Source of the DNA: Candidatus Latescibacterota bacterium
GTDB taxonomy: Bacteria > Latescibacterota > UBA2968
Assembly: GCA_965208125.1 (NCBI GenBank)
Contig: OZ242320.1
Location: 5,632,001-5,696,000 of the forward strand
Length of the DNA stretch: 64,000 nucleotides
Reading direction: 5' to 3'
Positions 28,200-52,989 of this stretch are shown here, one piece after another (positions within the stretch are counted from its first letter, which is position 1; every line of letters starts with the position of its first letter). Both the position numbers and the translations under genes were made by a program. A model generated the notes under the pieces. It had not been told where the DNA came from. It did not search any database and saw only the letters and a program-made list of their open reading frames with translations.

Positions 28200-28230
28200 C
28201 AGAGTTTTTATATGGAATAATCCGACCACA

Positions 28231-28293
28231 TATCGCAAAAAAGTGGAAACTGGAACAAATTTTGAACATTAGGACAAATCTTACAACTTGATT
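28231..28293 (+). promoter_or_regulatory. Conserved element copy B
   Basis: tatcgcaaaaaagtggaaactggaacaaattttgaacattaggacaaatcttacaacttgatt. Confidence 0.65.
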
Positions 28294-28378
28294 CTCTCTA
28301 ATTTGGAGCAATATATTTTTTATACGAATCTGTCGAAGCGCGACAGGTCGATCAAAATCTGATCGAACGGCTGGTGCC

Positions 28379-28792
28379 GTGAGTGTATTTGATAAACCAA
28401 TAGAGAGAGAGCAATTCTTGGCCAGAGTTAAAAGATATATGCTTTCACAAGATATGTGGAAGAACCGATTGGAATCATTTCTGGAAGACAATTACACCAA
28501 TCCAGACCTGAAATTTGAAGACCTCGTGCACTATTTCAAGTTTTCTAAGACCTATGGCTATGAATTGTTCAAAAAACATTTGGGCGAATCATTCAGGATG
28601 TGCCTGCGGAATGTGCGCCTGACAAAGGCTGAAGAAGCGTTAAAGAACACATCGGACTCCATTTCAGAAATTGCCTATCAGTGTGGCTTTGCGTACTTAT
28701 CGACGTTTAGCAGGGTTTTCAAAGCGACGTATGGGGAAAATCCAACGACATATCGCAGAAAATGGAAACTGGAACAAATTTCGAAACAGTAG
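28379..28792 (+). pseudogene. 5'-truncated duplicate of the RR-AraC gene (AraC domain intact)
   Basis: DNA homology starts at ggctggtgccgtgagtgtatttgataaacc, matching ggccggtgccgtgagtgtacttgataaacc at about 27755; most of the receiver domain is missing. Confidence 0.75.
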
Positions 28793-30320: not shown

Positions 30321-33300
30321 GTGAAACCCATGAAAAAATTCATTCTTTATTCCACCTTTTTTTTCCTCGTCCTCTTGCCATTCGTACAGGACAGCCGCGC
30401 CCAAAATACCCTTGAGGGGCATACCAATGCAGTCGAATCCGTGGCATTTTCACAAGATGGCACCATGCTCGTCTCCGGGGCAAGAGATGGCACGGTTGTG
30501 CTGTGGAACGTGACGACCAGACGCAATACCGACACCTTTGAAGGGCATACAGATGTAGTCAGTGCTGTGGCGTATGCTCCCGATGGAACACTACTCGCTT
30601 CCGGATCATCAGTAGATGGTACAGTCAAGCTGTGGAACGTGCAGGCGGGCACAAATATTGCCATTCTTGAGGATCAGACAGATGTGGTCAGTGCTGTAGC
30701 ATTTACCTCAGATGGAATATTGCTCGCCTCCGGGTTCGTGAATGGCACAATCCTGCTGTGGGATGTCGCGACAAAGAATGCCACCTCCCTTGAGGGGCAC
30801 AGGAATGCCGTGAGTTCTATGGCATTTTCGCAAGATGGAACGCTACTCGCTTCCGGATCAGCGAATGGCACAATCCTCCTGTGGGACGTACAGGCAGGCA
30901 CAAATATCGCCACCTTTGAAGAGCATACGGATGATGTCTCATCTGTGGCGTTTTCACGCGATGGCACAATCCTCGCTTCTGGATCTGATGATAACACAGT
31001 CAAACTGTGGGACGTACAGGCAGGCACAAATATCGCCACCTTTGAGGAGCATACGGATGCCGTCAGTTCCGTAGCGTTTTCGCAAGATGGAACTGTACTA
31101 TCCTCCGGATCAGTGGATGGCATGGTTATACTGTGGAATGTTGCAAAAAGAAAACAAATCACCACTCTTGAGGAAGATAAAAATGCCGTCAGTTCTATGA
31201 CGTTTTCCTCTGATGGAACGCTACTCGCTTCCGGAGCCGTAAATGGCAGGATCTGGCTTTGGAACGTATCTGAATGGACGCAGCCTCGCCCCGATATCCT
31301 GAGAAAAATCTCCGGCGACGACCAGCAGGGCACAACCAGAGCAATGTTGGCGAATCCCCTGATCGTCGAAGTACGAGATCAGAACGATAACCCCTTACCA
31401 GATGTGCAGGTCACGTTCAGAGTTACCGCTGGTGCGGGAAAACTCAGCGGACGATTCACGATTGAGTACGCAACAACCGATGCAGATGGCCGCGCAGAGG
31501 CTACGCTTACCCCTGGTCCCAATCCGGGGACAAACACCGTTGAAGTATCTATCGCCGGACGTGAGCCGATAACATTTCATGCAATGAGCATTGGAACGCC
31601 GACGGTGCCAAACCTGGACGGGGATTATCCAACATGGCATGTACCCGACGGTGCAATCGCACGCCTGGGCAAAGGACCTATTGGTACAGGGGACAAAGCG
31701 GTCGCATTTTCGCCGAACGGTCAAAGTCTCGCTGTGGCAAGTGGCATTGGCGTATGGCTTTACGACGTGGCGACCTCTCGTGAACTCATGCTATTACCCT
31801 CTGCGAGTGCCGTCAATTCTGTGGCGTTTTCAAGAAATGGGATGCAACTCGCTTCCGGATCCGTAGATGGCACGGTTGCACTGTGGGACATCGCGAAGGG
31901 ACAAAATACCCATACTTTTGAGGCGCGCAGGGGCAAGATCTCTCCCGTAGCATTTTCACAAAAAGAGACACTGACAGCATCCAGGTCTGTCGAATCGGTA
32001 GCATTTTCCCCCGATGGGAAGCTTATAGCTTCTGGGCGAAAAGACGGTACGGTTGTGTTGTTGGATATTGCAACCGGAAACGCCACCACACTTGAAGGCC
32101 ATACAGATTGGGTCAGTTCTGTGGCGTTTTCCCGCCAGGGGCTACTGGCTTCCGGGTCTTTGGATAGAACGATCAAACTATGGAACGTACAGACAGGCAC
32201 AAGAACAGCCATCTTGGAAGCGCGTAGCGGCAATGTCTTTTCCGTAGCCTTTTCACCCGATGGGACAAGACTCGCTTCCGGGTTAGGAGATGGCACTATA
32301 CTTCTGTGGGACATTGCGACAGAAAACGCCATCCCCCTTGAAGGACATACAGATGATGTCCGTTCCGTGTCCTTTTCACCCGATGGAACAATACTATCTT
32401 CCGGATCTGATGATAATACGATCAAGCTGTGGAACATTGCAACGCGCACAAATATCGCCACCTTTGAGGAGCATACAGATCATGTCAATTCTGTATCTCT
32501 ATCTCAGGATGCGGCTGATAGACTGCTACTATCTTCCGGATCTCTGGATGGCACGGTTAAACTATGGGATGTGGCGACGGAAAACGCTACCACCCTTGAA
32601 GGACATACACAGTCAGTCAGTTCTGTCGCGTTCTCGCCCGATGAGGATGAAACGCTACTCGCTTCCGGGTCTCTGGATGGAAACATCCTTCTGTGGGACA
32701 CAGCGAGAAGAGAGCAGATTACCACTCTTGAGGAACATTCGGAAGATGTCTTTTCTGTATCGTTTTCACCAGATGGGAGGCTGATAGCTTCCGGGTCTCT
32801 GGATGGAAACATCCTTCTGTGGGACATTACTACGAAAAACGCTACCACCCTTGAAGGACATACACAGTCAGTCAGTTCTGTCGCATTCTCGCTCAATGAG
32901 GATGAAACGCTACTCGCTTCTGGGTCTTTGGACGGAACAATTCTGCTATGGAACGTAACCACGCGCACAACAACAGCTCCACTTAAAGGACAGGCAGTCA
33001 GTTCCATGGCATTTTCACCCGATGGAACAAGACTCGCTTCTGGGTCTTTGGACGGAACAATTCTGCTATGGAACGTAACCACGCGCACAACAACAGCCCC
33101 ACTTGAAGAACATACGCAGGTGATCAGTTCTATGGCATTTTCGCAGGATGAGGATGGGGAGCTACTACTCGCTTCCGGGTCAGTAGATGGCACGATCCTC
33201 CTGTGGGATGTAGCAACGCGCACAACAACAGCCCTGCTTACAGGACATACAGAGGCAATCACTTCTGTGTCCTTTTCACCTGATGGGACACTACTCGCTT

Positions 33301-33677
33301 CTGGGTCTCTGGATAATACGATCCTCCTGTGGGATGTAGCGACGGAAAACGCCACCCTTCTTGAAGGACATACGGACAATGTCTTTTCCGTGGCGTTTTC
33401 TCCAGATGGGATGCTGTTATCTTCCGGATCAAGAGATGGCACAATCCTGTTGTGGGATATGTCGCCATATATCACACCTCAAACGCCCAATCCCGACTTT
33501 GATGGCGATGGGACTGTTGGTATTCCCGACTTTTTGCTATTTGTAGATCATTTCGGATTAACTCAAAGCGATGCGGAGTATGATGCACGATACGATCTGG
33601 ATGGGAATGGCACAATTGGGGTGGGTGATTTCCTGATCTTTGCCAATGCCTTCGAAAAAGAAGGATCCTCGAATTAA
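30321..33677 (+). CDS. Secreted WD40 repeat protein with a central Big_1-like Ig domain and C-terminal dockerin-like EF-hand pair
   Basis: About 20 LEGH..V.SVAFS.DG..LASGS.D.T..LW repeats; ISGDDQQG..NPLIVEVRDQ..VTF Ig domain; PDFDGDGTVGIPDFL...YDLDGNGTIGVGDFL. Confidence 0.92.
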   Translation: MKPMKKFILYSTFFFLVLLPFVQDSRAQNTLEGHTNAVESVAFSQDGTMLVSGARDGTVVLWNVTTRRNTDTFEGHTDVVSAVAYAPDGTLLASGSSVDGTVKLWNVQAGTNIAILEDQTDVVSAVAFTSDGILLASGFVNGTILLWDVATKNATSLEGHRNAVSSMAFSQDGTLLASGSANGTILLWDVQAGTNIATFEEHTDDVSSVAFSRDGTILASGSDDNTVKLWDVQAGTNIATFEEHTDAVSSVAFSQDGTVLSSGSVDGMVILWNVAKRKQITTLEEDKNAVSSMTFSSDGTLLASGAVNGRIWLWNVSEWTQPRPDILRKISGDDQQGTTRAMLANPLIVEVRDQNDNPLPDVQVTFRVTAGAGKLSGRFTIEYATTDADGRAEATLTPGPNPGTNTVEVSIAGREPITFHAMSIGTPTVPNLDGDYPTWHVPDGAIARLGKGPIGTGDKAVAFSPNGQSLAVASGIGVWLYDVATSRELMLLPSASAVNSVAFSRNGMQLASGSVDGTVALWDIAKGQNTHTFEARRGKISPVAFSQKETLTASRSVESVAFSPDGKLIASGRKDGTVVLLDIATGNATTLEGHTDWVSSVAFSRQGLLASGSLDRTIKLWNVQTGTRTAILEARSGNVFSVAFSPDGTRLASGLGDGTILLWDIATENAIPLEGHTDDVRSVSFSPDGTILSSGSDDNTIKLWNIATRTNIATFEEHTDHVNSVSLSQDAADRLLLSSGSLDGTVKLWDVATENATTLEGHTQSVSSVAFSPDEDETLLASGSLDGNILLWDTARREQITTLEEHSEDVFSVSFSPDGRLIASGSLDGNILLWDITTKNATTLEGHTQSVSSVAFSLNEDETLLASGSLDGTILLWNVTTRTTTAPLKGQAVSSMAFSPDGTRLASGSLDGTILLWNVTTRTTTAPLEEHTQVISSMAFSQDEDGELLLASGSVDGTILLWDVATRTTTALLTGHTEAITSVSFSPDGTLLASGSLDNTILLWDVATENATLLEGHTDNVFSVAFSPDGMLLSSGSRDGTILLWDMSPYITPQTPNPDFDGDGTVGIPDFLLFVDHFGLTQSDAEYDARYDLDGNGTIGVGDFLIFANAFEKEGSSN

Positions 33678-33695
33678 CTACTGCTCTAACATGAC

Positions 33696-36600
33696 ATGAA
33701 AATGAAACCTCCTGTTAAATTTCTCTCCCTCGTGCTCGGCATCACCAGTCTGCTGAGCCTGATCTTTTTGATCTACCCGCGGTCGCTATCCCCACAGACC
33801 AGCAGCGTAGCCTTAGAGACCACTGCGCCACCTTCTCTCGACTTTGACGGCAGTGGGATTGTGGATTTTCCCGACTATTTGATGTTTATAAGCGCGTTTG
33901 GATCTGAGGAGGGCCAGGATAAATACGATGCAAAATACGACCTCAATGGCGATGGTAAAATTGCTTTTGAAGACTTTCTAATTTTAACCGACAACTTTGG
34001 CAAAAATGTTGTAGCACAGAAGTCTCCAACGTCATCGGATCAGAACGCGAGCACGACTCAAAGCATGGCGGAGAACACGGGGACCACCGGTGCGACATTG
34101 CCCATTACCTCGCTGGAGGAATCATTGGTCGCGTCAACGCCACAGCCATTGACAGAAGCAACATTGAATGGCAGTGTGGTCACACTGACGCTGAGCGGTG
34201 CTACTTACGAGTCGTTTTCCTTCTCCATTAGTAATGCAGTAAAAGTATCCGGCATTTCCGGGGTTACCTTTAACAGTTTCTTCCATGTAGAGCGCGTGAG
34301 CGATACAGTGGTAACCGTTGAGCTTACATTTAATGGAGACATCGACACCGATGGCACGCTGACCTTCACGGTAGAGGCAGGTGCCATAGCGGGCTACAGC
34401 GGCTCTGCGCTCACTGCGACATTGCCCGTTACTGCGATACAGGAATCGATGGTCGCGTCAACGCCACAGCCATTGACAGAAGCAACATTGAATGGCAGTG
34501 TGGTCACACTGACGCTGACAGGACGTTCTTATGAGTGGTCTTTCGCCATTAGTCCTGCGCTGACAGTATCCGGCATTTCCGGGGTTACTTTTGACGGTTT
34601 CTTCGATGTAGATCGCGTAAGCGATACAGTAGTAACCGTTGAGCTTACATTTAACGGGAATATGACCACCGATGGCACACTGACCTTCACCTTAGAGGCA
34701 AGCGCCATAGCGGCCTATAACGGTGCTCCATTCACAGCGACATTACCCGTTACTGATAGCTCTGATAATGGAGGCCAACCACCACCGCAACCACCACCGC
34801 AACCACCACCGCAACCACCACCGCAACCACCACCGGGCGGGGGCACGCCTACTGAAAGTCCCGATTTAATTGTCGAAACGCCTACAGTCAGCGATAGCAG
34901 CCCAGATGCAGGTTCATCCTTCACGTTGAGTGCGACTGTTCGCAACCAGGGTGGCAGTCGGTCTGCCTCTACCACATTGCGCTACTATCTGTCAACAGAT
35001 GCGACCATCACGACAGGCGATACGGAAGTAGAAACGGACTACGTGAGCCGCATTAATCCTTCTGGAACCAGCGATGAGTCCGCCCGGATAGAGGCACCAT
35101 CGAGTGAGGGCACATATTACTATGGTGCCTGTGTCGATGTGGTGGATGGCGAATCTGATACAGGAAATAACTGCTCCAGTGCTGTCACTGTCACTGTTCT
35201 TGGTTCTGACTTAATCGTTGAATCGCCTGCAGTCAGCGAAAGTAGCCCGGGACCAGGCGCATCCTTCATATTGAGTGCCACTGTTCGCAACCAGGGCGGC
35301 GGGCGGTCTGCCTCCACGACATTGCGCTATTATCTCTCAACCGATGCCACCATCACGACCAGTGATACGGAGGTAGAAACAGACTATGTGAGCTACCTTG
35401 ATACTTCTGAAACCAGCGATGAGAGGGCTTATTTGGAAGCACCATCGAGTGAAGGCACGTATTACTACGGCGCCTGTGTCGAAAGCGTCACCGGGGAGAA
35501 CGATACGGGTAACAACTGCTCCAGCGCTGTCACTGTCACGGTTAGTGGTTCTGACTTAATCGTTGATTCGCCTACAGTCAGCGAAAGTAACCCGAAAGCA
35601 GGTGCATCCTTCAGGCTATATGCCACCGTTCGCAATCAGGGTGGCAGTCGGTCTGAATCTACGACATTGCGCTATTATCTCTCAACCGATGTGACGATAA
35701 ATACGAACGATCAGGAAATAGAAACGGACTATGTGAGCCGCCTTGCCCCTTCTGAAACCAGCGAGGAATCTGCTTATTTGAACGCCCCGTCGAGTGCGGG
35801 CACGTATTACTACGGAGCCTGTGTCGAAGCAGTCACTGGCGAATCCGACACAGGTAACAATTGCTCCAGTGCTGTCACCGTCACTGTGGGCGGCACAACT
35901 CCCCCACCCCCACCCACTCCCAATCAGCCCCCAGTATTCAGCGAGGGAACAAGCACGACCCGCAGCATAGCAGAAAACACAGGCGCAGGGCAGAACATAG
36001 GAATTCCGATCAGCGCGACAGATGGCGACGGTGACCGGCTCACTTATAGCCTCGAAGGCGCGGATGCCAGAGCATTCACCATCATCTCAGGCAGTGGTCA
36101 ACTCAGGACCCGATCAGGTGTGACGTATGACTATGAGACAAAGAACAGCTATTCAGTAACCGTGCGAGTACAGGACAGCAAAGGCGGGAGTGCAACCATC
36201 GCCGTGACCATCACCCTCACCGATGAGAACGAAGCACCCGGCAGGCCAGATGCGCCCACAGTCACAGCCTCAACACTGAACAGCCTGAGCCTGCGATGGA
36301 CAGCACCGACGGCCTCCGGGTCTGCCATCAGCGACTACGACGTGCAATACAAAGCAGCAGGCGGCAGTTTCACCGACTGGCCCCATACGGGCACGAGCAC
36401 GAACACGACAATCACGGGCTTGACTGCAAATACCCGTTACGAGATACAGGTGCGCGCGCGCAATGCACAAGGCGTGAGCAACTGGTCGCCATCGGCCACC
36501 GGAACGACCACAGCCAATCAGGCCCCAGTGTTCAGCGAGGGCGCGAGCACGACGCGCAGCATCGCAGAAAACACAGGGACAGGGCAGAACATCGGGAACC

Positions 36601-39600
36601 CCGTCAGCGCGACAGATGGCGACAATGACCAGATCACCTACAGCCTCGAAGGTAGGGATGCCTCTGCATTCACCATCCAGTCCAATAGCGGTCAACTCAA
36701 AACCAGATCAGGTCAGACGTATGACTACGAGACCAAGGACCGCTATTCGGTAACCGTGCGGGCGCAGGACGGCAAAGGCGGCAGTGCGACCATCGCCGTA
36801 ACAATAACTCTCACCGATGAAAACGAACCCCCGGGCAGACCCGCTGCACCCACGGTCACAGCTTCGTCGAATAGCCTGAGCCTGCGCTGGACAGCACCGG
36901 AGAATACAGGTCCTGCCATCAGCGACTACGATATACAATACAGGACGTCAGGAGGCAACTTCACCGACTGGCCCCATACTGGTACGAACACCAACACGAC
37001 AATCACGGGCTTGACAGCTAATACCAGTTACGAGGTGCAGGTGCGGGCGACTAATGGCGAAGGCACAGGCGACTGGTCGCCATCGGGCAGTGGGACGACC
37101 AGTAGTACTGATGCTAATAATCCCGATCTGATTGTCGAATCACCTTCCGTCGATAATAACACCCTGTCACCCGAGCAATCCTTCAGGCTCAGAGCGACTG
37201 TTCGCAATCGGGGTGGGGAGCGGTCTGCCTCCACGACATTGCGCTATTATCTCTCAACCGACAATACGATCTCGACAAGTGATACGGAAGTGGGTACGGA
37301 CTATGTGAGCCGCCTTAATGCTTCTGCAAGTAGTGATGAGTCTGTTCGTTTGAACGCCCCATCGAGTGAGGGCACATATTACTATGGCGCCTGTGTCGAA
37401 AGCGTCAGCGGAGAGAGCGATACGGGTAACAACTGCTCCAGTGCGGTCACCGTCACTGTTATGGGTTCTGACTTAATCGTCGAATCGCCTTCGGTCAGCA
37501 ATAGTAGTCCGGGACCAGGTGCATCCTTCACATTGAGTGCAACTGTTCGCAATCGGGGTAGCGGTCGATCTTCCTCTACGACATTGCGCTATTATCTCTC
37601 AACCGACCAGACGATTGACCAGAGTGATACAGAAATAGATACGGACTATGTTAGCTCCCTTGATCCTTCTGAAACCAGTGACGAGTTGGTTTTCTTGTCA
37701 GCCCCGTCAAGTGCTGGCAGATATTACTACGGCGCCTGTGTCGATGCAGTCACTGGAGAATCCGACACGGGTAACAACTGCTCCAGTACTGTCATCGTGA
37801 CCGTGAGGAGCGCCCCTCCTCCACCCGCACCCAATCAGCCTCCAGTATTCAGCGAGGGCACAAGCACGACTCGCAGCATGGCAGAGAACACAGGCGCAGG
37901 GCAGAACATCGGAAACCCGGTCAGCGCGACAGATAGCGACGGCGACCGACTCACCTATAGCCTTCAGGGCGGGGATGCCTCTGCATTTACCATCATCTCA
38001 GGCAGCGGGCAACTCAAGACCAGATCGGGTGTGACGTATGACTATGAGACAAAGGATACCTATTCGGTAACCATGCGAGTACAGGACGGTGAAGGTGGCA
38101 GTGCAACCATCGCCGTGACCATCACCCTCACAGATGAGAATGAACCACCAGATAGACCAGATGCACCAGTAGTCACGGCCTCGACCTTGAACAGCCTGAG
38201 TCTGCGCTGGACAGCACCGACGAACCCCGGGCCTGCGATCAGCGATTACGACGTGCAATACAAAGCAGCAGGCGGCAGCTTCACCGACTGGCCCCATACC
38301 GGGACTGGTACGACGACGACAATCACGGGCCTGACCGCAAACACCCGTTACGAGATACAGGTACGAGCACACAATGCACAGGGCGTGAGCGACTGGTCGC
38401 CATCGGTTACCGGGACAACCATAGCCAATCAGTCTCCAGTGTTCAGCGAGGGAACAAGCACAACCCGCAGCATAGCCGAGAACACAGGCACAGGTCAGAA
38501 CACCGGAAACCCGGTCAGTGCGACAGACGGCGATAACGACCCGATCACCTACAGCCTCGAAGGCAGGGATGCTTCTGCATTTACCATAGTCTCAGACAGC
38601 GGGCAACTCAAGACCCAATCAGGTGAGACGTATGACTATGAGACAAAGGATACGTATTCAGTAACCGTGCGGGCACAGGACAACAAAGGCGGCAGTGCGA
38701 CCATTGCCGTGACCATCACTCTCACCGATGAAAACGAACCCCCGGGCAGACCTGCTGCACCCACAGTCACAGCCTCATCGAATAGCCTGAGCCTGCGTTG
38801 GACAGCACCGGAGAATACCGGTCCTGCGATCAGCGACTACGATGTGCAGTACAGGGCGACAGGCGGCAGTTTCACCGACTGGTCCCATATTGGGCCGGGT
38901 CTGAGCACGACAATTACGGGTTTGATGTCTGAGACCACTTACGAGGTACAGGTGCGGGCGACCAATGATGAAGGCACGAGCGGCTGGTCGCCATCGGGTA
39001 ATGGTACGACCAGTCGTCCCGCGCCCGGCTTTGCCCCGGTAGATCAGAATGCATTCAATACATTTGTTAGCGACAAAGTCCTATCCGTAGAATCCTATTA
39101 TATCGAATTCTTGTCTGCTGGCCGATTTGAGGAAAACAATGCATATCCGGGAAGTTATACATTTTCAAATACTGGCTCGAATACTGGCATATTTACGCAA
39201 AACTATGATGGGGGGCATTTGGGTGGTACCTGTACAATCGAAATGACCTTCTCTTCAACAACCACAGGGACTTTACGCGCCAAATGTGGTAGCGAACAAA
39301 ACTACGATTCACCCCAGGCGTGGCAGTTTTCCGATCCGCCCGACCCCAATGCCTTTAATATCGAAGTCATTTGGGTCGGCAGCCAGCCATCTGCAGCTCA
39401 TCAGGCAGCTTTCAATGCCGCGGTTACGCGTTGGGAGAGCATCATCACGAGTGACATCCCCGATGTTTTTGTCAGTTCAGATGAAGGGGGCACGATAGAC
39501 GGCGTTAAGGTCTTCGGTCTTGTAGATGACCTGAGAATCTACGCGCGCCTCGCCAATATTGACGGCCCAGGAGAAACCCTGGGGAGTGCGGGTCCCCGAA

Positions 39601-40238: not shown

Positions 40239-40270
40239 CACGCAACCTTCAGCAAAAGGAGAACTCTCAG

Positions 40271-42403
40271 ATGAAAAAGAGCCGCTTATTTTCCCTCGCT
40301 CTCTTGTTGGTCGGGGTCCTGTTAGTGCAGGACAGCCGAGGCCAGACCACCCTTGAAGGACATACGGGTGATGTCACTTCCGTAGCATTTTCACATGACG
40401 GGACTATCCTCGCTTCAGGAGGGGGAACATTTGATGATACGGTGAAGCTATGGGATGTGGCGAAAAGAGAAATTATCGCTACACTGGAAGGGCATAGAGG
40501 GGGGGTTACGTCAGTAGCGTTTTCATCCAATGGAATGTTGGCTTCCGGATCAGGGGATGGCACGGTCGTGCTGTGGGACGTGGCGACACGCGAAGTTATC
40601 GCTACACTGGAGGGGCAAGGTAGTCGGGGTGCTTCCACCATAGCGTTTTCTCCTGATGGGATGATTCTCGCTTCAGGAGGAAGGGTAGGTCTGGATGGAA
40701 CGGTCAGGTTGTGGGACGTGGCGAAAAGAGAGCTCATCGCCACTCTGGAAGATGGGGATGCGGTTTCTTCGGTAGCATTTTCGTCCGATGGGACGATTCT
40801 CGCTTCAGGAGGAAGGGATGGACTTGATGGCACGGTCAGGTTGTGGGATGTGGCGACACACACAAATATCGCCACCCTGAGGCATTGGAGCGAAGTTGTT
40901 TCGGTAGCGTTTTCCCGGGATGGTACGATCCTCGCTTCAGGGTCAAGTGACAACATAGAGTTGTGGGACGTGGCGAAAAGAGAAAGTATCGCTACCCTGG
41001 AAGGGCATACGCAGGGTGTCACTTCGGTGGCGTTTGCACCAGATGGGACACTGGCTTCAGGATCAAGAGATGACACCGTGAAGCTGTGGGACGTGGCGAA
41101 AAGAGAGCTCATCGCCACTCTGGAAGATGGGGATAATGTCACTTCGGTAGCGTTTTCACCAGATGGAGTGCTACTGGCTTCAGGGTCAGAGGATAGAACG
41201 GTGAAGCTGTGGAATGTGGCGACAATAGAACCGACCGAAGACACAAATATCGCTACTCTGGAAGGGCATAGCTATGATGTCACTTCAGTGGCGTTTTCAC
41301 CACCGGATGGAAAGATACTCGCTGTTGGATCAGAGGACAATACCTTCAGTTTATGGAATATCCAAACAAAAGAACGTGTCGCTACGGTCTTTGGAGATGG
41401 TAGGGGTGCGGTTACTTCGGTGGCATTTTCACCACCGGATGGAAAGATACTCGCTACCGCACGGGATAACAACCGAATTGAGTTATGGGACGCGGCGACA
41501 CGCACAAATACCGAGTTAGAGGTAATCACACGCAAAAGTATCGCCATCCTTGGAGAATATATGGAGAATTTGGATGTCCGTTCGGTAGCGTTTTCACCCG
41601 ATGGGAAGATACTCGCTGCCGTGTATAGTGATAACACGATGAAACTATGGAATGTGGAGACGCGCGAAGTTATTGCGACTCTGAAAGGGCATGGTAGTCG
41701 GGGTGCTTCCATAGCATTTTCGCGTGATGGGATGCTGCTGGCTTCCGGAGGGGGAGCATTTGATGAAGAAACGGTTTTGCTGTGGAACGCAACGACACGC
41801 GAAGTTATCGCGACCCTGGAGGGGCAAGGTCCGGTAGCATTTTCGCGTGATGGGATGCTGCTGGCTTCTGGAGGGGGGAACAGAGGATACACGGTTTTGC
41901 TGTGGGACGTGGCGAAAAGAGAACTTATCGCTACCCTGGAAGGGCATAGCAGTGATGTCACTTCAGTAGCGTTTTCACCCGATGGGATGCTGCTGGCTTC
42001 CGGAGGAGGGGCATTCGATGAAACAGTGAAACTGTGGGACGTGGCGAAAAGAGAACTTATCGCTACCCTGAGGGGGCATAGCAATGAAGTCACTTCGGTG
42101 GCGTTTTCACCCGATGGGATGCTGCTCGCTTCAGGGTCAGAGGATGCAACTGTAAAGCTGTGGGATATCTCGTCGTATAGCACATCTCAACCTCCTGCAC
42201 CACCTCAACCGCCTACTCCCGACTTTGATGGCGATGGGACTGTTGGCTTTGCCGACTTTTTGCAGTTTGTAGCGCTATTTGGATTGAGCCGAGATGATGC
42301 GGGATATGACGCGCGGTACGATCTGGATGGCGATGGCACCATTGGGTTTGGTGACTTTCTGCTCTTTGTCAACGCCTTTGGCAAAGAAGGGGCCTCGAAT
42401 TGA
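40271..42403 (+). CDS. Secreted WD40 repeat protein with C-terminal dockerin-like module
   Basis: Signal peptide ..VQDSRGQ; about 14 WD40 repeats; PDFDGDGTVGFADFL..YDLDGDGTIGFGDFL. Confidence 0.92.
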   Translation: MKKSRLFSLALLLVGVLLVQDSRGQTTLEGHTGDVTSVAFSHDGTILASGGGTFDDTVKLWDVAKREIIATLEGHRGGVTSVAFSSNGMLASGSGDGTVVLWDVATREVIATLEGQGSRGASTIAFSPDGMILASGGRVGLDGTVRLWDVAKRELIATLEDGDAVSSVAFSSDGTILASGGRDGLDGTVRLWDVATHTNIATLRHWSEVVSVAFSRDGTILASGSSDNIELWDVAKRESIATLEGHTQGVTSVAFAPDGTLASGSRDDTVKLWDVAKRELIATLEDGDNVTSVAFSPDGVLLASGSEDRTVKLWNVATIEPTEDTNIATLEGHSYDVTSVAFSPPDGKILAVGSEDNTFSLWNIQTKERVATVFGDGRGAVTSVAFSPPDGKILATARDNNRIELWDAATRTNTELEVITRKSIAILGEYMENLDVRSVAFSPDGKILAAVYSDNTMKLWNVETREVIATLKGHGSRGASIAFSRDGMLLASGGGAFDEETVLLWNATTREVIATLEGQGPVAFSRDGMLLASGGGNRGYTVLLWDVAKRELIATLEGHSSDVTSVAFSPDGMLLASGGGAFDETVKLWDVAKRELIATLRGHSNEVTSVAFSPDGMLLASGSEDATVKLWDISSYSTSQPPAPPQPPTPDFDGDGTVGFADFLQFVALFGLSRDDAGYDARYDLDGDGTIGFGDFLLFVNAFGKEGASN

Positions 42404-42434
42404 AACAATTTCAATAGGAAAAGAGATTATTGCC

Positions 42435-44351
42435 ATGTCCATTTTCAAACCCCTATCACTCTGTTTCCTATTCGTATCACTGCTTTTGCCCTCCTCATTT
42501 GCGATCATCACTTTTACTGGCCCTGCAACTGGCCCTGGTGATTTTGATGGCAACGGGAATGTAAATATAGCGGACTTTCTACTATTTATGGACGTGTTCG
42601 GCAAGTCATCGTCGGATGTGGGATTTGATGCGCGGATGGATTTTGATGGCAATGGGAATGTAAATATAGCGGACTTTCTGCTCTTTGTAGATGTGTTTGG
42701 CACAACGTATTCCACAGGTGGCGGGCAAGGCGATGACGACAGTAGTGTTATACCGCCCTCACCTGCCAATGTACGGTATCAGTGGGCAGAGGGACAATAT
42801 CAAATCTCCTGGGATCCTTCCCCTAACGCAACTTCTTATCGGGTATATTACGACAATGCTACAGCCTTCGCTGATGTTAGTTGCCCAGGGAGTTGTAGCG
42901 AAATAGTCACTGTGAGTAACACAACCATTAGTCACTTTAAGCACCGTGAAGGTGAACGCAAAATAGGGTACTGGGTACGGGCCTGTAATGACGCAGGCTG
43001 TTCAAACTATGTTAGAGCATCCAGGAGCGGTGGTGACAGTAGTGCCCCGCCCCCACCCAGCAATGTAAAATATCAATGGGATGGATCTATTTCTCAATAC
43101 AGAATCTCCTGGGATCCTTCCCCTAACGCGACTTCTTATCGGGTATATTACGACAATGCTACAGCCTTTGATGTTAGTTGCCCAGGGAGTTGTAGCGAAA
43201 TAGTCACTGTGAGTAACACAACCATTAGTCACTTTAAGCACCGTGAAGGTGAACTCGCTGGCTTTCTAAACCTCTACACACGCAAAATAGGGTACTGGGC
43301 ACGGGCCTGTAATGACGCAGGCTGTTCAAACTATGTTAGAGCATCCAGGGGCGATGATATTGGTCCAGACCTGATTGTTGAATCGGCTTCTGTAAATAAT
43401 GGCAGCCCCAACGCGGGCCAGTCCTTCACGCTGAGTGTCACGGTTCGCAACCAGGGCAATCGTCAGTCTCCCGCTACAATGCTACGCTATTATCGCTCGT
43501 CAAATTCGACTATATCAAGGAATGATACGGCAGTGGGCACGGACGCTGTGAGCAGTCTTTCAACTTCTGGTGTGACTTCTAAATCAATCAGCCTGACAGC
43601 ATCATCAAGCTATTACTACGGTGCTTGTGTGGATGCCGTCAATTATGACATTGACGAAAGCAATGACTGTTCCAGCGGTGTTCCTGTCATTGTTGGTGGG
43701 CAACCTCTATCAACAATAACAGTCATTGAACTGGATGCCTCTAATAATTCTCCTGAAGGTATCACCTACGCTAATGACAGATTCTATGTCGTTGATAGTT
43801 TCCGAAATAAGGTATATGCGTACATGAGTTCTGGACAACGCGATGCTACTTCGGACTTTGAAATATCTGCCAGTATTCACTGGCCTGAAGGTATCACCTA
43901 CGCCAATGACAGATTCTATGTCGTTAATGATCGGGACGACAAGGTATATGCGTACATGAATTCTGGACAACGCGATGCTGCTTCAGACTTTGAACTATCT
44001 TCCGATAATAATTCTCCTACAGGTATCACCTATGCCAATGACAGATTCTATGTCGTTGAGACCGGAGGTAGAGTATATGCATATATGAGTTCTGGGCAGC
44101 GCGATGCTGCTTCAGACTTTGAACTATCTTCCGGCAATAATTCTCCTGAAGGTATCACCTACGCCAATGACAGATTCTATGTCGTTGAGACCGGAGGTAA
44201 AGTATATGCATACATGAGTTCTGGGCAACGCGATGCTGCTGCTTCAGACTTTGAACTATCTTCCGGCCATACTACCGGTATCACCTACGGCAATGGCAGA
44301 TTCTATGCCGTTGATAGGTCAAGGGGTAAAGTATATGTGTTCAATCCCTAA
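42435..44351 (+). CDS. Secreted protein: dockerin-like + 2 Cys-containing FN3-like + CARDB-like + 5 GITYANDRFYVV propeller repeats
   Basis: Start taken at MSIFKPL (42435); motifs read directly from the translation. Confidence 0.85.
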   Translation: MSIFKPLSLCFLFVSLLLPSSFAIITFTGPATGPGDFDGNGNVNIADFLLFMDVFGKSSSDVGFDARMDFDGNGNVNIADFLLFVDVFGTTYSTGGGQGDDDSSVIPPSPANVRYQWAEGQYQISWDPSPNATSYRVYYDNATAFADVSCPGSCSEIVTVSNTTISHFKHREGERKIGYWVRACNDAGCSNYVRASRSGGDSSAPPPPSNVKYQWDGSISQYRISWDPSPNATSYRVYYDNATAFDVSCPGSCSEIVTVSNTTISHFKHREGELAGFLNLYTRKIGYWARACNDAGCSNYVRASRGDDIGPDLIVESASVNNGSPNAGQSFTLSVTVRNQGNRQSPATMLRYYRSSNSTISRNDTAVGTDAVSSLSTSGVTSKSISLTASSSYYYGACVDAVNYDIDESNDCSSGVPVIVGGQPLSTITVIELDASNNSPEGITYANDRFYVVDSFRNKVYAYMSSGQRDATSDFEISASIHWPEGITYANDRFYVVNDRDDKVYAYMNSGQRDAASDFELSSDNNSPTGITYANDRFYVVETGGRVYAYMSSGQRDAASDFELSSGNNSPEGITYANDRFYVVETGGKVYAYMSSGQRDAAASDFELSSGHTTGITYGNGRFYAVDRSRGKVYVFNP

Positions 44352-44473
44352 TGAGCAAGTCCGCCGATTTCGCGGGACTTTAGCGAAGAGACATGCTATT
44401 CTCGCGCATCTGATACTTCTTTTGAGCGAGAAGCCTCGCGACACTCAGCCTTCAGAGCAAGGAGGGTGCTCAC

Positions 44474-46474
44474 ATGAAAAAGGCCCTATTGTTCAACCTC
44501 ATCCTCTCTTTCCTATTCGCATCACTGCTTTTTATCCCCTCATTTGCCCAACACTTTTTAGGCGCATTGTCGGGGTTGGTACTCCAGGTGGATACGCAGA
44601 TCGAAAGCCCTGTTCAAAACAACAATGTGCAAATCCTTCCCGAACAAAAGGCGGGGGATACGATCCAGTTTCAGCTTTTCGTTCCGGCAGGTGCGGGTCA
44701 ATCTACCAATGGTTATACAGTGGAGCTCGATCTGCCGGGCAAGACATTTTCCAGCTATATTGGAAATGTATCGGGCACGGATTGGACAGGAGGAGCGCTG
44801 ATAAGCACTGGATCTACAAAGTTATCCGCGTTATTCCCCACGGGTGCTTCTTTGCCCTCAACGGGTTATTTGGGGCAGCTTGATTTGCAGGTGGTGAGGT
44901 CGCTTGAAGGCAGTGCAACACTAATCGTCAAAAGCCTTTCAATAACCAGTGAGAGCGATGTTGACGTATTAGATGTATCCAATGCGATTATCACCTTTAC
45001 AGCACCTGCAACTAACCCCGGTGATTTTGATGGTAATGGCAACGTAAATTTGGCGGACTTTCTGCTCTTTGTCTCAGTTTTTAACAAGTCATCGTCGGAT
45101 ATGGGATTTGATGCACGGATGGATTTTGATGGCAATGGGAACGTAAATCTGGCGGACTTTCTGCTCTTTGTAGATGTGTTTGGCACAACGTATCCCACAG
45201 GCGGCGGGCAAAGCGGCGGCGACAGTAATGTTATACCGCCTCCACCTGACAATGCACAGTATCAATGGGATCCTTCTACTTCTTTATATCAAATCTTCTG
45301 GGATCCTTCTCCTAACGCAACTTCTTATCGGGTATATTACGACAGTGCTGATTTATTGGATGTTAGTTGCCCAGGGGGCTGTAGACAAATAGCTAATGTG
45401 AGTAACACAACCTTTGCTCACTTTAGCAGTCATGGCATCATAGGATACTGGGTACGGGCCTGTAATGACGCAGGCTGTTCAAACTATGTTAGAGCATCCA
45501 GGAACGGCGATGACAGTAGTGCCCCACCCTCACCTGACAATGTACGGTATTGGTGGGATACTTCTATTTATGAATATAGAATCTCCTGGGATCCTTCTCC
45601 TGGCGCAACTTCTTATCGGGTATATTACGACAGTGCGACTTTCTTTAATGTTAGTTGCCCGGGGGGCTGTAGGCGAATAGCTACTGTGGGTGACACGACC
45701 ATTACTCATATTAGTAGTCATTTCAAAATAGGATACTGGGTAAGAGCCTGCGATGACGCGAACTGTTCAAACTATGTTAGAGCATCCTATGTTAGAGCAT
45801 CGGAGGTTGGGGGGTACCCCCCAACAACAACAATCTTCGAACTGGATACCTCTCATGATTCTCCTAAAGGGATCACCTACGCCAATGACAGATTCTATGT
45901 GGTTGATGATATTTCCTTCCGTAGCGGCAAGGTATATGCGTACCTGAGTTCTGGGCAACGCGATCCTGCTTCCGACTTCGACCTATCTCCTCAATGGACG
46001 CCTGAAGGGATCACCTACGCCAATGACAGATTCTATGTGGTTGATGATTACCGGGATAAAGTATTTGCGTACCTGAGTTCTGGGCAGCGCGATCCTGCTT
46101 CCGACTTCGACCTATCTTCCAACACCGAAAGGGCTAAAGGGATCACCTACGCCAATAACAGGTTCTATGTGGTTGATGATCGCCGGGATAAAGTATTTGC
46201 GTATATGAGTTCTGGGCAGCGCGACCCTGCTTCCGATTTCGACCTATCTCCCCAAAATTGGTCGTCTGAAGGGATCACCTACGCCAATGACAGGTTCTAT
46301 GTGGTTGATGGTCACCGGTACAAGGTATTTGCGTATATGGGTTCTGGGCAGCGCGACCCTGCTTCCGACTTCAATCTGTCTCCCGAAAGAGGATCGCCCA
46401 GAGGGATCACCTACGCCAATGGCAAATTCTACCTGGTTGTGTATAGTATAGTCTATGAGGTTGATCCCCAATGA
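44474..46474 (+). CDS. Secreted paralog: cohesin-like beta domain + dockerin-like + 2 FN3-like + 5 propeller repeats
   Basis: AGGAGG RBS; GDTIQFQLFV..GYTVEL..GYLGQLDLQV beta-sandwich; two DFDGNGNVNLADFL loops. Confidence 0.85.
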   Translation: MKKALLFNLILSFLFASLLFIPSFAQHFLGALSGLVLQVDTQIESPVQNNNVQILPEQKAGDTIQFQLFVPAGAGQSTNGYTVELDLPGKTFSSYIGNVSGTDWTGGALISTGSTKLSALFPTGASLPSTGYLGQLDLQVVRSLEGSATLIVKSLSITSESDVDVLDVSNAIITFTAPATNPGDFDGNGNVNLADFLLFVSVFNKSSSDMGFDARMDFDGNGNVNLADFLLFVDVFGTTYPTGGGQSGGDSNVIPPPPDNAQYQWDPSTSLYQIFWDPSPNATSYRVYYDSADLLDVSCPGGCRQIANVSNTTFAHFSSHGIIGYWVRACNDAGCSNYVRASRNGDDSSAPPSPDNVRYWWDTSIYEYRISWDPSPGATSYRVYYDSATFFNVSCPGGCRRIATVGDTTITHISSHFKIGYWVRACDDANCSNYVRASYVRASEVGGYPPTTTIFELDTSHDSPKGITYANDRFYVVDDISFRSGKVYAYLSSGQRDPASDFDLSPQWTPEGITYANDRFYVVDDYRDKVFAYLSSGQRDPASDFDLSSNTERAKGITYANNRFYVVDDRRDKVFAYMSSGQRDPASDFDLSPQNWSSEGITYANDRFYVVDGHRYKVFAYMGSGQRDPASDFNLSPERGSPRGITYANGKFYLVVYSIVYEVDPQ

Positions 46475-46523
46475 GCAATCCGCAGATTTCGCAGGAACCG
46501 GGCAAGGGCAGAGGAACAAACTC

Positions 46524-47849
46524 ATGAAAACGCCAGCTATGAATTATAAATTTCTCCTACTGATTTTAGTCTTGTCGGCCTTCGCACAGGGTATCGGCTA
46601 CGGGCAAGAATCTGTCCCCTCGGTGAATGAATCAGGGGCGGATGCCACACTAAGCAGGCTGACGGCCAGCCCGGTGGACATTATCGGCTTCGACAGCGAT
46701 GTAACCGAATACCATGTCGGCGTTGCGAACTCGGTAACTCAGGTCACCATAACGGCAACCACTACAGATGCAGGTGCGACCATCGAGATGGGTAAGAGTG
46801 AGACAGACAAGAACACCGTCGCCAGTGGTTCAGCGCAGGTGTTCTTGCTGGATGAGGGTCGGAACACCGTGTATGTATGGGTTACGTCCCAAAGCGGAAC
46901 TATAAAGAAAATCTATACAATCATAGTGGGCAGGAGCGTCGATTCTGCGTTCAGCTGGAAGACCGTTGACGACTTCAACACGCTGCGTGCTGCTGGAAAT
47001 CGAAGCATTGACGGCATCTGGTCGGACGGGACGACTATGTGGGTGGCGGACGAAAGCGGCGACGAGAAATTGTATGCCTATGACATGACATCCAAGGAGC
47101 ATGTTCCGGAAAAAGACATCAATACGCTGGATGCCGCCGATAACGATGCCCCAGACGGTATCTGGTCGGACGGGGTGACGATGTATGTCGCGAACGACCC
47201 GTCCTTCTTCGAGAAGATTTATGCGTACGACCTGGCGACCGGGATCAGGGACCGAGACAAAGACATAAATGCACTGGAAATTGCGGGAAACGACAACCCG
47301 GAAGGCATCTGGTCGGACGGAACGACCATGTGGGTGGCAGACATCTCTGACGAGAAATTGTATGCCTATGACCTGACGACCAAGGAGCGTGTCCCGAACA
47401 AAGACTTCAACACGCTGGATGCCGCCGGAAACGACGATCCGACGGGCATCTGGTCGGATGGGACGACCATGTGGGTAGCGGACGACTGGGACGAGAAATT
47501 GTATGCCTATGACCTGATGTCTAAAGAGCGTGTCCCGGACAAAGATTTCAATACACTGAAATCTGCTGGAAACAGTAGCCCGGAAGGCATCTGGTCGGAT
47601 GGGACGACCATGTGGGTGGCGGACGACTGGGACGAAAAAATATATGCCTACAACATGCCGTCCAACGGAGGCGCAACAGCGGGCGTGACCGACTTCAATG
47701 GCGACGGTCGGACCGATTTGGCTGACTTCTTACTGTTCGTCAATGCGTTCGGCGGTACCGACGCCCGCTTTGATCTGGATGGGGATGGCACCGTCGGGCT
47801 TGGTGATTTTCTGATCTTTGTGGATGCCTTTGGCAAAGAAGGGGCATAG
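46524..47849 (+). CDS. Secreted protein: cadherin-like beta-sandwich + 5 GIWSDGTTMWV repeats + dockerin-like module
   Basis: DATLSRL..F....TEY...V.N..VTITAT; 5 repeats; DFNGDGRTDLADFL..FDLDGDGTVGLGDFL. Confidence 0.85.
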   Translation: MKTPAMNYKFLLLILVLSAFAQGIGYGQESVPSVNESGADATLSRLTASPVDIIGFDSDVTEYHVGVANSVTQVTITATTTDAGATIEMGKSETDKNTVASGSAQVFLLDEGRNTVYVWVTSQSGTIKKIYTIIVGRSVDSAFSWKTVDDFNTLRAAGNRSIDGIWSDGTTMWVADESGDEKLYAYDMTSKEHVPEKDINTLDAADNDAPDGIWSDGVTMYVANDPSFFEKIYAYDLATGIRDRDKDINALEIAGNDNPEGIWSDGTTMWVADISDEKLYAYDLTTKERVPNKDFNTLDAAGNDDPTGIWSDGTTMWVADDWDEKLYAYDLMSKERVPDKDFNTLKSAGNSSPEGIWSDGTTMWVADDWDEKIYAYNMPSNGGATAGVTDFNGDGRTDLADFLLFVNAFGGTDARFDLDGDGTVGLGDFLIFVDAFGKEGA

Positions 47850-47983
47850 AATTGGCCTATCTGTGTATCCACGCCTTTAGATAATATGTATGGGGATGAT
47901 AGGATAGTTTTGGTAGGCGTCTTAAGTGCTTTTTGAGTTCCAATAGTTTTAAAACGGCATCTTAACAGTAAAAGAGATCCTCC

Positions 47984-49648
47984 ATGAAATGCTTAAAAAA
48001 GAATACTCTTCTTCGCACCTTTACAACTGCGTTGAGCGCGTGCTTTTTTGTGTTGATATTCTTCACCTCTGTCAGCTATGCATCGCCCGAATATATAGTG
48101 CGGATAATCTACTTTGTTCCAAGCGACCGCACGCCCCAGAAAGACATAGACACACAACTGGATAAGCTGATAAAAGAAGCACAGCAGTTTTGTGCAGATC
48201 TGATGGAAAGCCACGGATTTGATAGAAAAACATTTAGACTTGAAACCGACGCGACCGGAAAGGTTGTGGTGCATCACGTGAACGGAAAATTCAACGATGC
48301 ATATTATCAGAGTCCATCCACTTCAGTAGCCTGGAGGGAAATCAATGAACAGTTTGATATGTCGAAAAATATCTATCTCACCGCGATAGATATCAGTAGC
48401 GAAGTCCTTAGTGGTAAAGCGTGTGGTCGAGGGAGTGGAGGAAGCCATAATGGACGGGTACTCATGCCCGCCTCAGGTCGTTGTTTTCACCTCGGTCTTA
48501 TGAACCATGAACTCGGACATGCCTTTGGCTTGAAACACGATTTTCGCCCCCGCACTACCCCACCCTCATTTACTTTCACCGACAACGAACCAATGCTCAC
48601 CTCTTTCTGTGCTGCTGAATGGTGGGATGCCCATCGCTACTTCAACCCAACCCAAATCGCCTTCGATGAACCCACAATGGTTGAGATGTTCTCCCCAAGT
48701 CCCGCCTCTTCACCGTATGCTATCCGCCTTCAATTTGAGATATCTGACCTTGATGGACTCCATCAGGCACAGTTGGTGAATGCCTCAGGATTATTAATCG
48801 ATTATAAGCGATTAAACGGCAAAAGCAACACCGTTGAATTTGTAGTAACCACCTACATAGCATCCCTCATTAAGAGTTTCGTAACCCTTAGAGTTATGGA
48901 TGTACATGGCAACATCAGAAACCAGAGGTTTCCAATTGATATTACCTCCCTGCTACCTCCGTCTGAAGTTGTGTCTATACCAGACCTAAATTTAGCAGCG
49001 GCGGTCCGGGAAACCCTCGGATTAACACCCGGGGGTACTATTACACAACTGGATATGCTGAGATTCGGAATAGTAAATGATAAAAGGAGTTTTAATGCTT
49101 CCGGTCGCCAGATAACTGACCTTACTGGACTTAAATATACAATGAATACACTGAGGACTTTAGTGATTAGGCACAATCAAATTAGCGATGTAAGTCCACT
49201 CGAGGAGCTAGTAAATCTTGAAAATTTAAATCTCGTTTCCAATCAGATTACCGATGTAAGTCCACTCGCAAAGTTGACGAATTTACGCATATTAGACCTT
49301 AAAAACAATCAGATTACCGATGTAAGTCCGCTCGCAGGGTTGGTAAATCTACAATTTTTATGGCTTAGGGGGAATCCAATTGCGGATATGTCCCCTCTTC
49401 ACAAACTCCTGCGTCAGAATTCTAATTTGAAAATAGATATTGATATCGGTGATGTGCCGCCTACGCCCGACTTTGATGGCGATGGTATTGTTGGTGTTCC
49501 CGACTTTTTGCTATTTGTGGAACAGTTCGGGTTAAGTCGTGGCGATGTGGGATATAACACGCGGTACGATCTGGATGGCGATGGGACAATTGGTGTTAGC
49601 GATTTTCTGATCTTTATGGATGCCTTTGGCAAAGAAGGGACTGGGTGA
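47984..49648 (+). CDS. Secreted metzincin-type zinc protease + internalin-like LRRs + dockerin-like module
   Basis: HELGHAFGLKH; NQI(S/T)DVSPL..L.NL..L.L repeats; PDFDGDGIVGVPDFL. Confidence 0.88.
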   Translation: MKCLKKNTLLRTFTTALSACFFVLIFFTSVSYASPEYIVRIIYFVPSDRTPQKDIDTQLDKLIKEAQQFCADLMESHGFDRKTFRLETDATGKVVVHHVNGKFNDAYYQSPSTSVAWREINEQFDMSKNIYLTAIDISSEVLSGKACGRGSGGSHNGRVLMPASGRCFHLGLMNHELGHAFGLKHDFRPRTTPPSFTFTDNEPMLTSFCAAEWWDAHRYFNPTQIAFDEPTMVEMFSPSPASSPYAIRLQFEISDLDGLHQAQLVNASGLLIDYKRLNGKSNTVEFVVTTYIASLIKSFVTLRVMDVHGNIRNQRFPIDITSLLPPSEVVSIPDLNLAAAVRETLGLTPGGTITQLDMLRFGIVNDKRSFNASGRQITDLTGLKYTMNTLRTLVIRHNQISDVSPLEELVNLENLNLVSNQITDVSPLAKLTNLRILDLKNNQITDVSPLAGLVNLQFLWLRGNPIADMSPLHKLLRQNSNLKIDIDIGDVPPTPDFDGDGIVGVPDFLLFVEQFGLSRGDVGYNTRYDLDGDGTIGVSDFLIFMDAFGKEGTG

Positions 49649-51258: not shown

Positions 51259-51281
51259 AAGACGCGGGGAAGACAGTCTTT

Positions 51282-52961: not shown

Positions 52962-52989
52962 TTTCAATTCTTTCAAAGCCGAGAATCAG

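Follow-up and report, generated by a model that had tools for sequence, protein, structure and literature searches.

A dockerin tag shared by exported proteins of a Candidatus Latescibacterota genome and a cohesin joined to a type IX secretion domain as its candidate receptor

The DNA analyzed here, a stretch of 64,000 nucleotides hereafter called the window (contig OZ242320.1, positions 5,632,001-5,696,000, assembly GCA_965208125.1), originates from a Candidatus Latescibacterota genome that is represented by a single contig of 5.75 Mb and is 96% complete. Between positions 30321 and 49648 in window numbering, which is used for genes 1-7 throughout, seven open reading frames (ORFs) on the plus strand were found to encode a signal peptide and exactly one duplicated loop-helix module each (Table 1). 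This module, identified as a dockerin, recurs on numerous further proteins of the same genome, and a cohesin domain fused to the C-terminal domain (CTD) of type IX secretion systems (T9SS) is proposed as its candidate receptor.

A preliminary description of the locus had assigned one paired-loop module to each of the seven genes, and this was confirmed: the first loops begin at 33495, 33840, 42221, 42540, 45023, 47691 and 49469, within 3 nucleotides of the earlier values, and the second loops follow 81-99 nucleotides further on. The module is C-terminal in genes 1, 3, 6 and 7, N-terminal in genes 2 and 4, and placed after a beta domain in gene 5. The ORF of gene 4 opens at 42294, its likely start being deduced from the signal peptide, and that of gene 6 opens at 46455, with a ribosome-binding motif indicating the likely start. 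Domain matches (for genes 1 and 3, those among the best 25 Pfam families listed) agreed with the cargo types named before, namely WD40, CARDB/cadherin/FN3, five-repeat propellers and leucine-rich repeats (LRR). Both of the supposed zinc proteases possess an HExxH motif, but their family support is weak: gene 7 matched Reprolysin_5 below the Pfam cut-off only, and gene 2 matched no peptidase family in Pfam despite its motif. None of genes 1-7 matched the T9SS CTD model TIGR04183, and no Rfam family was found within the window. The run of seven tagged genes is the longest in the genome, the other runs comprising 5, 4 and 3 genes. Its locus represents a variable island, in which genes 1-2 recur in several relatives and the remaining genes differ.

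Table 1. Genes of the tagged cluster and their cohesin-fold and dockerin domains (window numbering).
Feature	Coordinates	Strand	Description
Gene 1	30321..33677	+	1118 aa; signal peptide, WD40 repeats, C-terminal dockerin
Dockerin of gene 1	33489..33659	+	
Gene 2	33696..40238	+	2180 aa; signal peptide, N-terminal dockerin, CARDB/cadherin/FN3 repeats, C-terminal HExxH domain (39702)
Dockerin of gene 2	33834..34004	+	Pfam Dockerin_1 above cut-off
Gene 3	40271..42403	+	710 aa; signal peptide, WD40 repeats, C-terminal dockerin
Dockerin of gene 3	42215..42385	+	
Gene 4	42435..44351	+	Signal peptide, dockerin, two FN3-like domains, CARDB, 5-repeat propeller (likely start)
Dockerin of gene 4	42537..42704	+	Pfam Dockerin_1 above cut-off
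Gene 5	44474..46474	+	666 aa; signal peptide, cohesin-fold domain B, dockerin, two FN3-like domains, 5-repeat propeller
Cohesin-fold domain, family B (gene 5)	44549..45001	+	
Dockerin of gene 5	45017..45187	+	Pfam Dockerin_1 above cut-off; model fits solved dockerins
Gene 6	46524..47849	+	Signal peptide, cadherin-like domain, 5-repeat propeller, C-terminal short-linker dockerin (likely start)
Dockerin of gene 6	47688..47837	+	
Gene 7	47984..49648	+	554 aa; signal peptide, HExxH domain (48506), internalin-type LRR, C-terminal dockerin
Dockerin of gene 7	49463..49633	+	

A chance motif was rejected as the origin of the module, since 77 of the 12,226 ORFs with a length of 100 aa or more contained the loop pattern, compared with none in each of ten residue shuffles. 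The profile of the seven modules matched the type II dockerin 2y3n_B best among solved structures (E 2e-11, gap-free), ahead of calmodulins, and a plain EF-hand was rejected as well; a search of solved structures with a single dockerin had returned calmodulins among the matches listed, which the profile search resolved in favor of a dockerin. The folded module (pLDDT 88-97) comprises two helices and superimposes on the solved dockerins 2ozn_B (Z 7.6, rmsd 1.9 over 55) and 2y3n_D (Z 6.6). Moreover, an alignment of 92 modules from the genome contains the duplicated 12-residue Ca2+-binding loop with Asp or Asn at positions 1, 3 and 5 and Asp at position 12, and both repeats retain D1, D12 and F13/F16/F20 in 80-92 of the aligned modules, D1 and D12 being invariant. 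The repeats are symmetric, with Phe near-invariant at loop-helix positions 13, 16 and 20. By analogy with other dockerins, the Phe positions suggest a hydrophobic binding face usable in two orientations. By sequence and modelled fold, the module is a dockerin, in agreement with the preliminary description; it is type II-like and is predicted to bind a cohesin. In terms of curated families, Pfam Dockerin_1 was matched above cut-off by genes 2, 4 and 5 and below cut-off by gene 7, with none among the matches listed for gene 6. The GC-type dockerin family NF041540 (cut-off 29) gave scores of 27 and 20 for genes 6 and 7 and none listed for the other five, while one tagged protein elsewhere in the genome scored 31.6.

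In total, 92 tagged proteins with one module each were identified in the source genome by hidden Markov model (HMM) search, 80 of the main type, eight of a DLRxL subtype and four with half modules; the tag is C-terminal in 43, N-terminal in 35 and internal in 14 of them. A crude rule predicted a signal peptide for 74 of these proteins compared with 516 of 1787 background ORFs, and three of the misses (641054, 857356 and 4827044) begin after an in-frame TGA followed by xxC, which is consistent with selenocysteine. A lipobox was found in three of the proteins and a possible membrane helix in one, 91 of the 92 being without a predicted membrane anchor, and a CTD is present in only one. The cargo consists mostly of repeats (LRR, WD40, NHL, LDL-receptor-b, FG-GAP, FN3, cadherin and ASH), complemented by enzymes comprising two family-8 lyases of chondroitinase ABC-type architecture, a chondroitinase B, one GH5, one GH113, a sulfatase, two subtilases, M10 and M66 peptidases and a nuclease. 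Accordingly, the earlier statement that glycoside hydrolases are missing holds for the window and not for the genome, and the characterization of the system as non-cellulolytic, with a single GH5 and a single GH113 among 92 clients, stands.

Comparisons were extended to the order (53 genomes, i.e., the source genome and 52 relatives) and to the phylum (153 genomes). The tag was found in 140 of the 153 phylum genomes, with at least 21 copies in all 52 relatives of the order, and has expanded across the whole order. The seven genes of the window are interpreted as interchangeable clients of this lineage-wide tagging system; a dedicated seven-part complex, as initially envisaged, was not upheld, since they form a variable island of clients for a tag present on 92 proteins. 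As separate observations on the tag, the eight DLRxL dockerins resemble the divergent dockerin of a 1606-aa operon protein and may represent a second specificity class, and in four paralogues encoded at 4774377-4795594 of the genome a CTD-like domain lies close to the N-terminus and is succeeded first by a dockerin of another type and then by the cargo.

Cohesins, which the preliminary description presupposed, do exist in the genome on proteins possessing a CTD as export or anchoring domain. Pfam Cohesin matched above cut-off at five places, none of them inside the window, namely in a three-gene operon (2266947-2280478), in a tagged LRR protein and in a 268-aa protein. In iterative searches, the cohesin-like domains fell into families A/C, B and D. 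Family D, for which three of the four sites in the source genome matched Pfam Cohesin above cut-off, gave cohesin entries at ranks 1-19 of the structure comparison (Z 14.6, rmsd 2.1 over 115). Its sequence resembles Clostridium perfringens and type II cohesins, and among its profile matches is 2y3n_A, whose partner in the solved pair is 2y3n_B, the best match of the dockerin. Family D is present in 53 of 53 order genomes and is always located 5' of a CTD passing TIGR04183 (34-40 bits in the four tested, cut-off 23), the fold of which matches the PorU CTD (Z 8.9), tied with FlgD. A large multi-cohesin scaffoldin was not found in the source genome, in which no protein exceeded three cohesin-like domains, although cohesins of greater divergence might have escaped the search. 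The conserved three-gene operon encodes large acidic Ig-rich proteins with cohesins and CTDs; two of them combine a dockerin with a cohesin in cis and might join head to tail to form a surface layer.

Across the class, D forms part of a cassette in the order cargo, dockerin, short linker, cohesin D and CTD. Families within the class are denoted f1-f4 and f9, f4 being the sister family and f3, f4 and f9 the outer families of the cassette survey. The dockerin precedes D in 30 of 30 best loci of these outer families and, in large proteins, at 29 of the 30 best order loci, the remaining locus being cut by a contig end. The linker ends with small-small-Lys in 56 of 59 cases (loose pattern), and cis-cassette and free dockerins have the same helix pattern. 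In C-terminally tagged clients, the stop codon follows 1-6 residues past the dockerin in 35 of the 40 measured, and four such clients retain a stub with the lysine motif, as judged by eye. Furthermore, D occurs in a stand-alone, cargo-free protein of approx. 270 aa consisting of signal peptide, cohesin and CTD, encoded at 1729281 and 4832074 in the source genome. This architecture was verified by HMM in 26 loci and is kept at 81-95% identity across the genus. As deduced from short frames, D lies in a frame of less than 400 aa in at least 48 of the 53 order genomes, compared with 2 of 32 f4 genomes tested. A predicted complex of D with the gene-3 dockerin and two Ca2+ ions scored 0.13 and 0.10 against a mark of 0.32 and, being without folded controls, counts neither way; domain packing is not readable from the model of a natural dockerin-D-CTD stretch (pTM 0.49). 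In one relative, a 180-aa frame (L156:6512-7051) joining a partial cohesin D to a dockerin was observed inside an island of tagged genes.

The beta domain of gene 5 (domain B) had also been described as cohesin-like, which was borne out for its fold and not for its sequence. Its model (88-row alignment, pLDDT 94.5) is a jelly-roll beta-sandwich of approx. 140 residues that matches 2vo8 (Z 11.0, rmsd 2.9 over 124); nine of the top ten rows of the structure comparison are cohesins, the best non-cohesin being YcnI (Z 8.6), and Foldseek and the ESM Atlas agree, with Atlas cohesin clusters at 0.92. None of the six family B paralogues matched Pfam Cohesin (PF00963) at E up to 10, and sequence searches of solved structures with domain B and with family A gave no match. 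Profile-profile comparison linked B to D only at E 3e-4 (probability 39.6); links of A to B (E 0.0017) and of A to D (E 0.034) were weak, and family A appears cohesin-like only through its link to family C, which matches Pfam Cohesin. The six copies of family B in the source genome each lie immediately 5' of a dockerin, and relatives encode signal-B-B-dockerin, signal-B-B-B-dockerin and signal-B-Ig-CTD proteins as well as a signal-A-B-dockerin protein of approx. 390 aa that is conserved within the genus. An interpretation of B as an X-module was rejected, since its best matches are cohesins and it occurs in tandem and on CTD proteins without dockerin. Family B was found in 47 of the 53 order genomes; the six in which it was not found, four of them closed single-contig assemblies, all carry dockerins. 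Gene 4 is a paralogue of gene 5 that lacks B, the alignment starting at the end of this domain, and B is therefore dispensable on such a client. Because it is absent from gene 4 and was not found in these six genomes, compared with the presence of D in all 53 order genomes, the gene-5 cohesin is the poorer receptor candidate.

With regard to secretion, the source genome encodes SprA, 18 PorV-family proteins above cut-off and a C25 PorU-like protein. No secretin was detected in the source genome or in 20 of 20 congeners, a positive control being matched in 6 of 14 genomes; by genus, secretins were found in 0/20 (g1), 0/15 (g2) and 0/2 (g4) genomes and in 13 of 15 other relatives. For the T9SS of Flavobacterium, the portion of PMC10994853 available describes the CTD as the part bound by PorV and SprA, with a motor extracting the substrate. 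Dockerin and CTD numbers behave reciprocally between families: the 56 genomes of f1-f3 contain 21 to at least 41 dockerins (at least 41 in 46 of them) and 6-32 CTDs, while the 69 genomes of f4 contain 1-32 dockerins and 28 to at least 42 CTDs (at least 42 in 63 of them). Both models derive from f1-biased sequences. Model bias does not explain the CTD deficit in f1-f3, as it was on f1-f2 sequences that the CTD model was constructed; it could, however, partly account for the dockerin excess.

Several arrangements of T9SS genes were observed besides. The best PorV match of the genome is directly followed by a tagged gene; in this region (424420-432988), the PorV gene is succeeded by genes for a propeller protein with dockerin tag, for an M6-like protein that is T9SS-dependent and has a CTD, and for a TolB-like protein of 1013 aa, with two further tagged genes within 7 kb. 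Several PorV-family genes close three-gene operons consisting of a large TonB-receptor-like gene (labelled by eye) and a gene for a protein of 730-890 aa with a divergent CTD-like tail. Moreover, genes at 747510, 2391278 and 2707561 encode a signal peptide, Cache sensor domains and a CTD without signalling output and thus apparently secreted Cache proteins.

Based on these results, we lean towards a model in which dockerin-tagged cargo is anchored in trans by the free cohesin D-CTD protein and may be escorted out by it as well. D would be the cognate receptor of the dockerin and would bind it in a Ca2+-dependent manner in either orientation. The dockerin-cohesin-CTD cassette may have been split in the ancestor of the order, the cargo keeping the dockerin and the D-CTD half acting in trans, with the lysine linker as a putative processing site. 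The stand-alone D protein would be delivered to SprA/PorV by its CTD and would hold tagged cargo at the outer surface, for which SdbA of clostridia, a single-cohesin anchor, provides a model; it may also carry cargo through the translocon. Some clients, gene 5 among them, bear cohesin-fold domains of families A, B or C, which might allow more tagged proteins to stack onto them, serving as small adaptors or branches. What would result is not a cellulosome but a surface coat of modular make-up, in which repeat-domain binders, peptidases and glycosaminoglycan lyases are combined. The preliminary description had offered a new sorting tag as an alternative to surface display; this proposal is in good agreement with the evidence and blends into the display model. 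A true piggyback export is conceivable but rather unlikely; in this version, the dockerin plug would have replaced the cis T9SS signal on approx. 90 proteins, and the cargo-free cohesin-CTD carrier would bind folded clients in the periplasm, convey them through SprA and retain them on the surface.

A number of points weigh against this model. In 10 of 26 loci, the gene for stand-alone D has a dockerin gene at a distance of approx. 4 kb or less, compared with a background of 11%, but 16 of the 26 loci have no dockerin neighbour, and the enrichment is not independent, since several loci share a genome. The lysine-linker pattern is loose and without chance control, and short tails after a terminal domain are to be expected anyway. 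The reciprocal counts represent one phylogenetic contrast between kin without statistical weight; divergent f4 dockerins or stand-alone cohesins could be missed, and the family counts are partly lower bounds. PorV genes are not enriched near dockerin genes (8/22, p 0.14), and GldM and GldN of the T9SS motor needed to extract substrates gave no match, in searches without a matching control genome. One cohesin per anchor for approx. 90 clients, some of more than 2000 aa and having to pass as complexes, strains the piggyback route in particular. Finally, D could be a mere spacer in an extended C-terminal signal, and the true receptors could be found among the other cohesin-fold families (A, B, C).

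Other explanations were weighed against the D-CTD model. That the dockerin itself serves as the signal for sorting or anchoring and is recognized without any cohesin, by a PorV-family barrel, a different protein of the outer membrane or a lipid, with the cohesin folds as structural spacers, would account for the strict occurrence of one module per protein at either terminus and for the parallel of CTD loss and dockerin gain. It also agrees with the number of PorV-family genes, the tagged gene directly behind the best PorV match and the existence of a related NCBIfam family termed 'GC-type dockerin domain-anchored protein'. We nevertheless regard direct reading as unlikely, since it explains neither the invariant dockerin-cohesin-CTD cassette nor the conservation of the cargo-free signal-cohesin-CTD protein across the genus; most PorV paralogues among those listed sit in TonB-receptor operons away from tagged genes, and the window proteins remain below the GC-dockerin cut-off. 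It is quite improbable that the tagged proteins stay in the periplasm, or that the module is a mere Ca2+-binding stabiliser spread by recombination without present receptor function: four to six aromatic positions are near-invariant in both repeats across unrelated cargo, the tag is kept in multiple copies in every relative of the order, and chondroitinase-type lyases, cadherin/FN3 stalks and internalin-type LRRs presumably act, judged from their families, on large external substrates. The lack of a known outer-membrane route for proteins without CTD, the missing secretin, the four single loop-helix halves among the 92 modules and the varying gene content of the locus are in line with such an interpretation.

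The idea closest to the preliminary description, a cellulosome-like complex on a multi-cohesin scaffold with family B as main receptor, displaying adhesins and proteases for host interaction, likewise appears improbable. The cohesin fold of B, the tandem B-dockerin, B-Ig-CTD and signal-A-B-dockerin proteins described above, the conserved operon with several cohesin-like domains and CTDs, and the occurrence of relatives in sponge RNA libraries speak for it. It has to be set against these that B was not found in six dockerin-carrying order genomes, that gene 4 equals gene 5 minus B, that no protein of the source genome exceeds three cohesin-like domains and that the seven-gene set is not conserved. 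A true cellulosome was rejected, given the failure to find a large multi-cohesin scaffoldin and the near absence of glycoside hydrolases (GH5 and GH113, one each) from the tagged proteins.

Regarding the habitat, the named records nearest to the genome's cohesin gene were labelled Candidatus Latescibacterota in 43 of 45 loci and Rhodothermaceae in two. A survey of RNA data found 19 runs, of which 16 were RNA runs with small shares; four were examined against a source-genome cohesin D locus (L018) and not against the window. Contigs approx. 92-93% identical to this locus occurred in four RNA libraries, three of which are labelled sponge metagenome, and close relatives likely live in sponges. 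The stand-alone cohesin D gene was covered wholly or partly by contigs of close relatives in all four libraries examined. Since all RNA-library material consists of contigs, genes cannot be ranked by expression, and the poor coverage of dockerin genes carries no weight either way. A host-directed role, as assumed initially, is not established, because eukaryote-like domains also occur in free-living relatives without environmental specificity, according to the text of PMC7081726 as far as available.

Further genes surround the elements discussed. Directly downstream of the tagged cluster (49807-57997), three Omp85-family genes, one encoding a patatin-Omp85 fusion (52909-55230), and a 559-aa protein without Pfam or NCBIfam match were found. 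Upstream, a receiver-AraC regulator followed by a shorter near-copy (window 27387-28792) precedes two small exported proteins and the cluster. Behind the cohesin operon, genes at 2283059-2289631 resemble what we take, from a motif, to be a Pup-proteasome locus.

On secreted proteins of Gram-negative lineages that are uncultured, dockerin-like modules are usually interpreted as components of a cellulosome, and no receptor is named; here, a candidate receptor carrying a secretion signal is named, and the question is reducible to two small soluble domains. If the D-CTD model is correct, cohesin-dockerin assembly and type IX secretion become linked, a known secretion system is used in a new way by a trans adaptor born from a split cassette, and T9SS cargo can escape CTD-based prediction. 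It would also show how a single tag of 57 residues allows a sponge-associated lineage to shuffle binding domains together with matrix-degrading enzymes onto its surface, and a trans-acting carrier would represent a practical surface-display tool. In the literature searched, partly by title and beginning of the abstract and with supplements and subscription papers not covered, no account of a cohesin-CTD adaptor or of export by a bound carrier protein was found, nor a paper joining Latescibacter, dockerin and cohesin; the terms dockerin, cohesin, scaffoldin and cellulosom do not occur in the main text of PMC4454575. Non-cellulosomal cohesin-dockerin pairs and latescibacterial dockerins are already known, and the new element is the coupling to the T9SS via cohesin-CTD that the sequences point to.

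Compared with known systems, the dockerin proteins of Latescibacteria reported by Farag et al. 2017 originate from the same phylum and are likewise exported. In the passages available of two later papers, they are credited as dockerins 'within cellulosomes' (PMC7424252) and as cellulosome-affiliated enzymes (PMC7081726), i.e., second-hand as cellulosomal and polysaccharide-degrading, whereas most cargo found here consists of repeat-domain binders. The GC-type dockerin domain-anchored proteins (NF041540) similarly treat a dockerin-like module as an anchoring tag, but the scores listed for the window reach 20-27 bits against 29 and the tag is also N-terminal. T9SS type A substrates (SprA/PorV; PMC10994853, available portion) share with the present system the SprA, PorV-family and C25 proteins and CTDs passing TIGR04183; in contrast, the clients described here are without their own CTD, and GldM/GldN were not detected, no matching control being included. 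Clostridial type II cohesin-dockerin anchoring (2y3n of Pseudobacteroides cellulosolvens; SdbA of C. thermocellum) is alike in dockerin sequence, linker length and fold, in the single cohesin joined to a cell-surface targeting domain and in small cohesin-dockerin adaptors. It differs in that the host is Gram-negative here, a T9SS CTD takes the place of SLH or sortase signals on the cohesin, no large scaffoldin was found and only one GH5 and one GH113 occur among the 92 clients. Non-cellulosomal pairs such as NagJ/NagH of Clostridium perfringens, 2xdh of Archaeoglobus fulgidus and those of Limihaloglobus, for which a Coh-Doc-Coh protein with 13 dockerin proteins is described in the part of PMC11557425 available, have non-cellulolytic cargo and cohesins riding on cargo proteins in common with the system presented here, and C. 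perfringens cohesins are the best structural matches of both B and D. Compared with these pairs, the latescibacterial system is distinguished by its scale of approx. 90 clients, by the conservation of a cohesin-CTD protein free of cargo and by a dockerin-cohesin-CTD cassette that occurs across the class.

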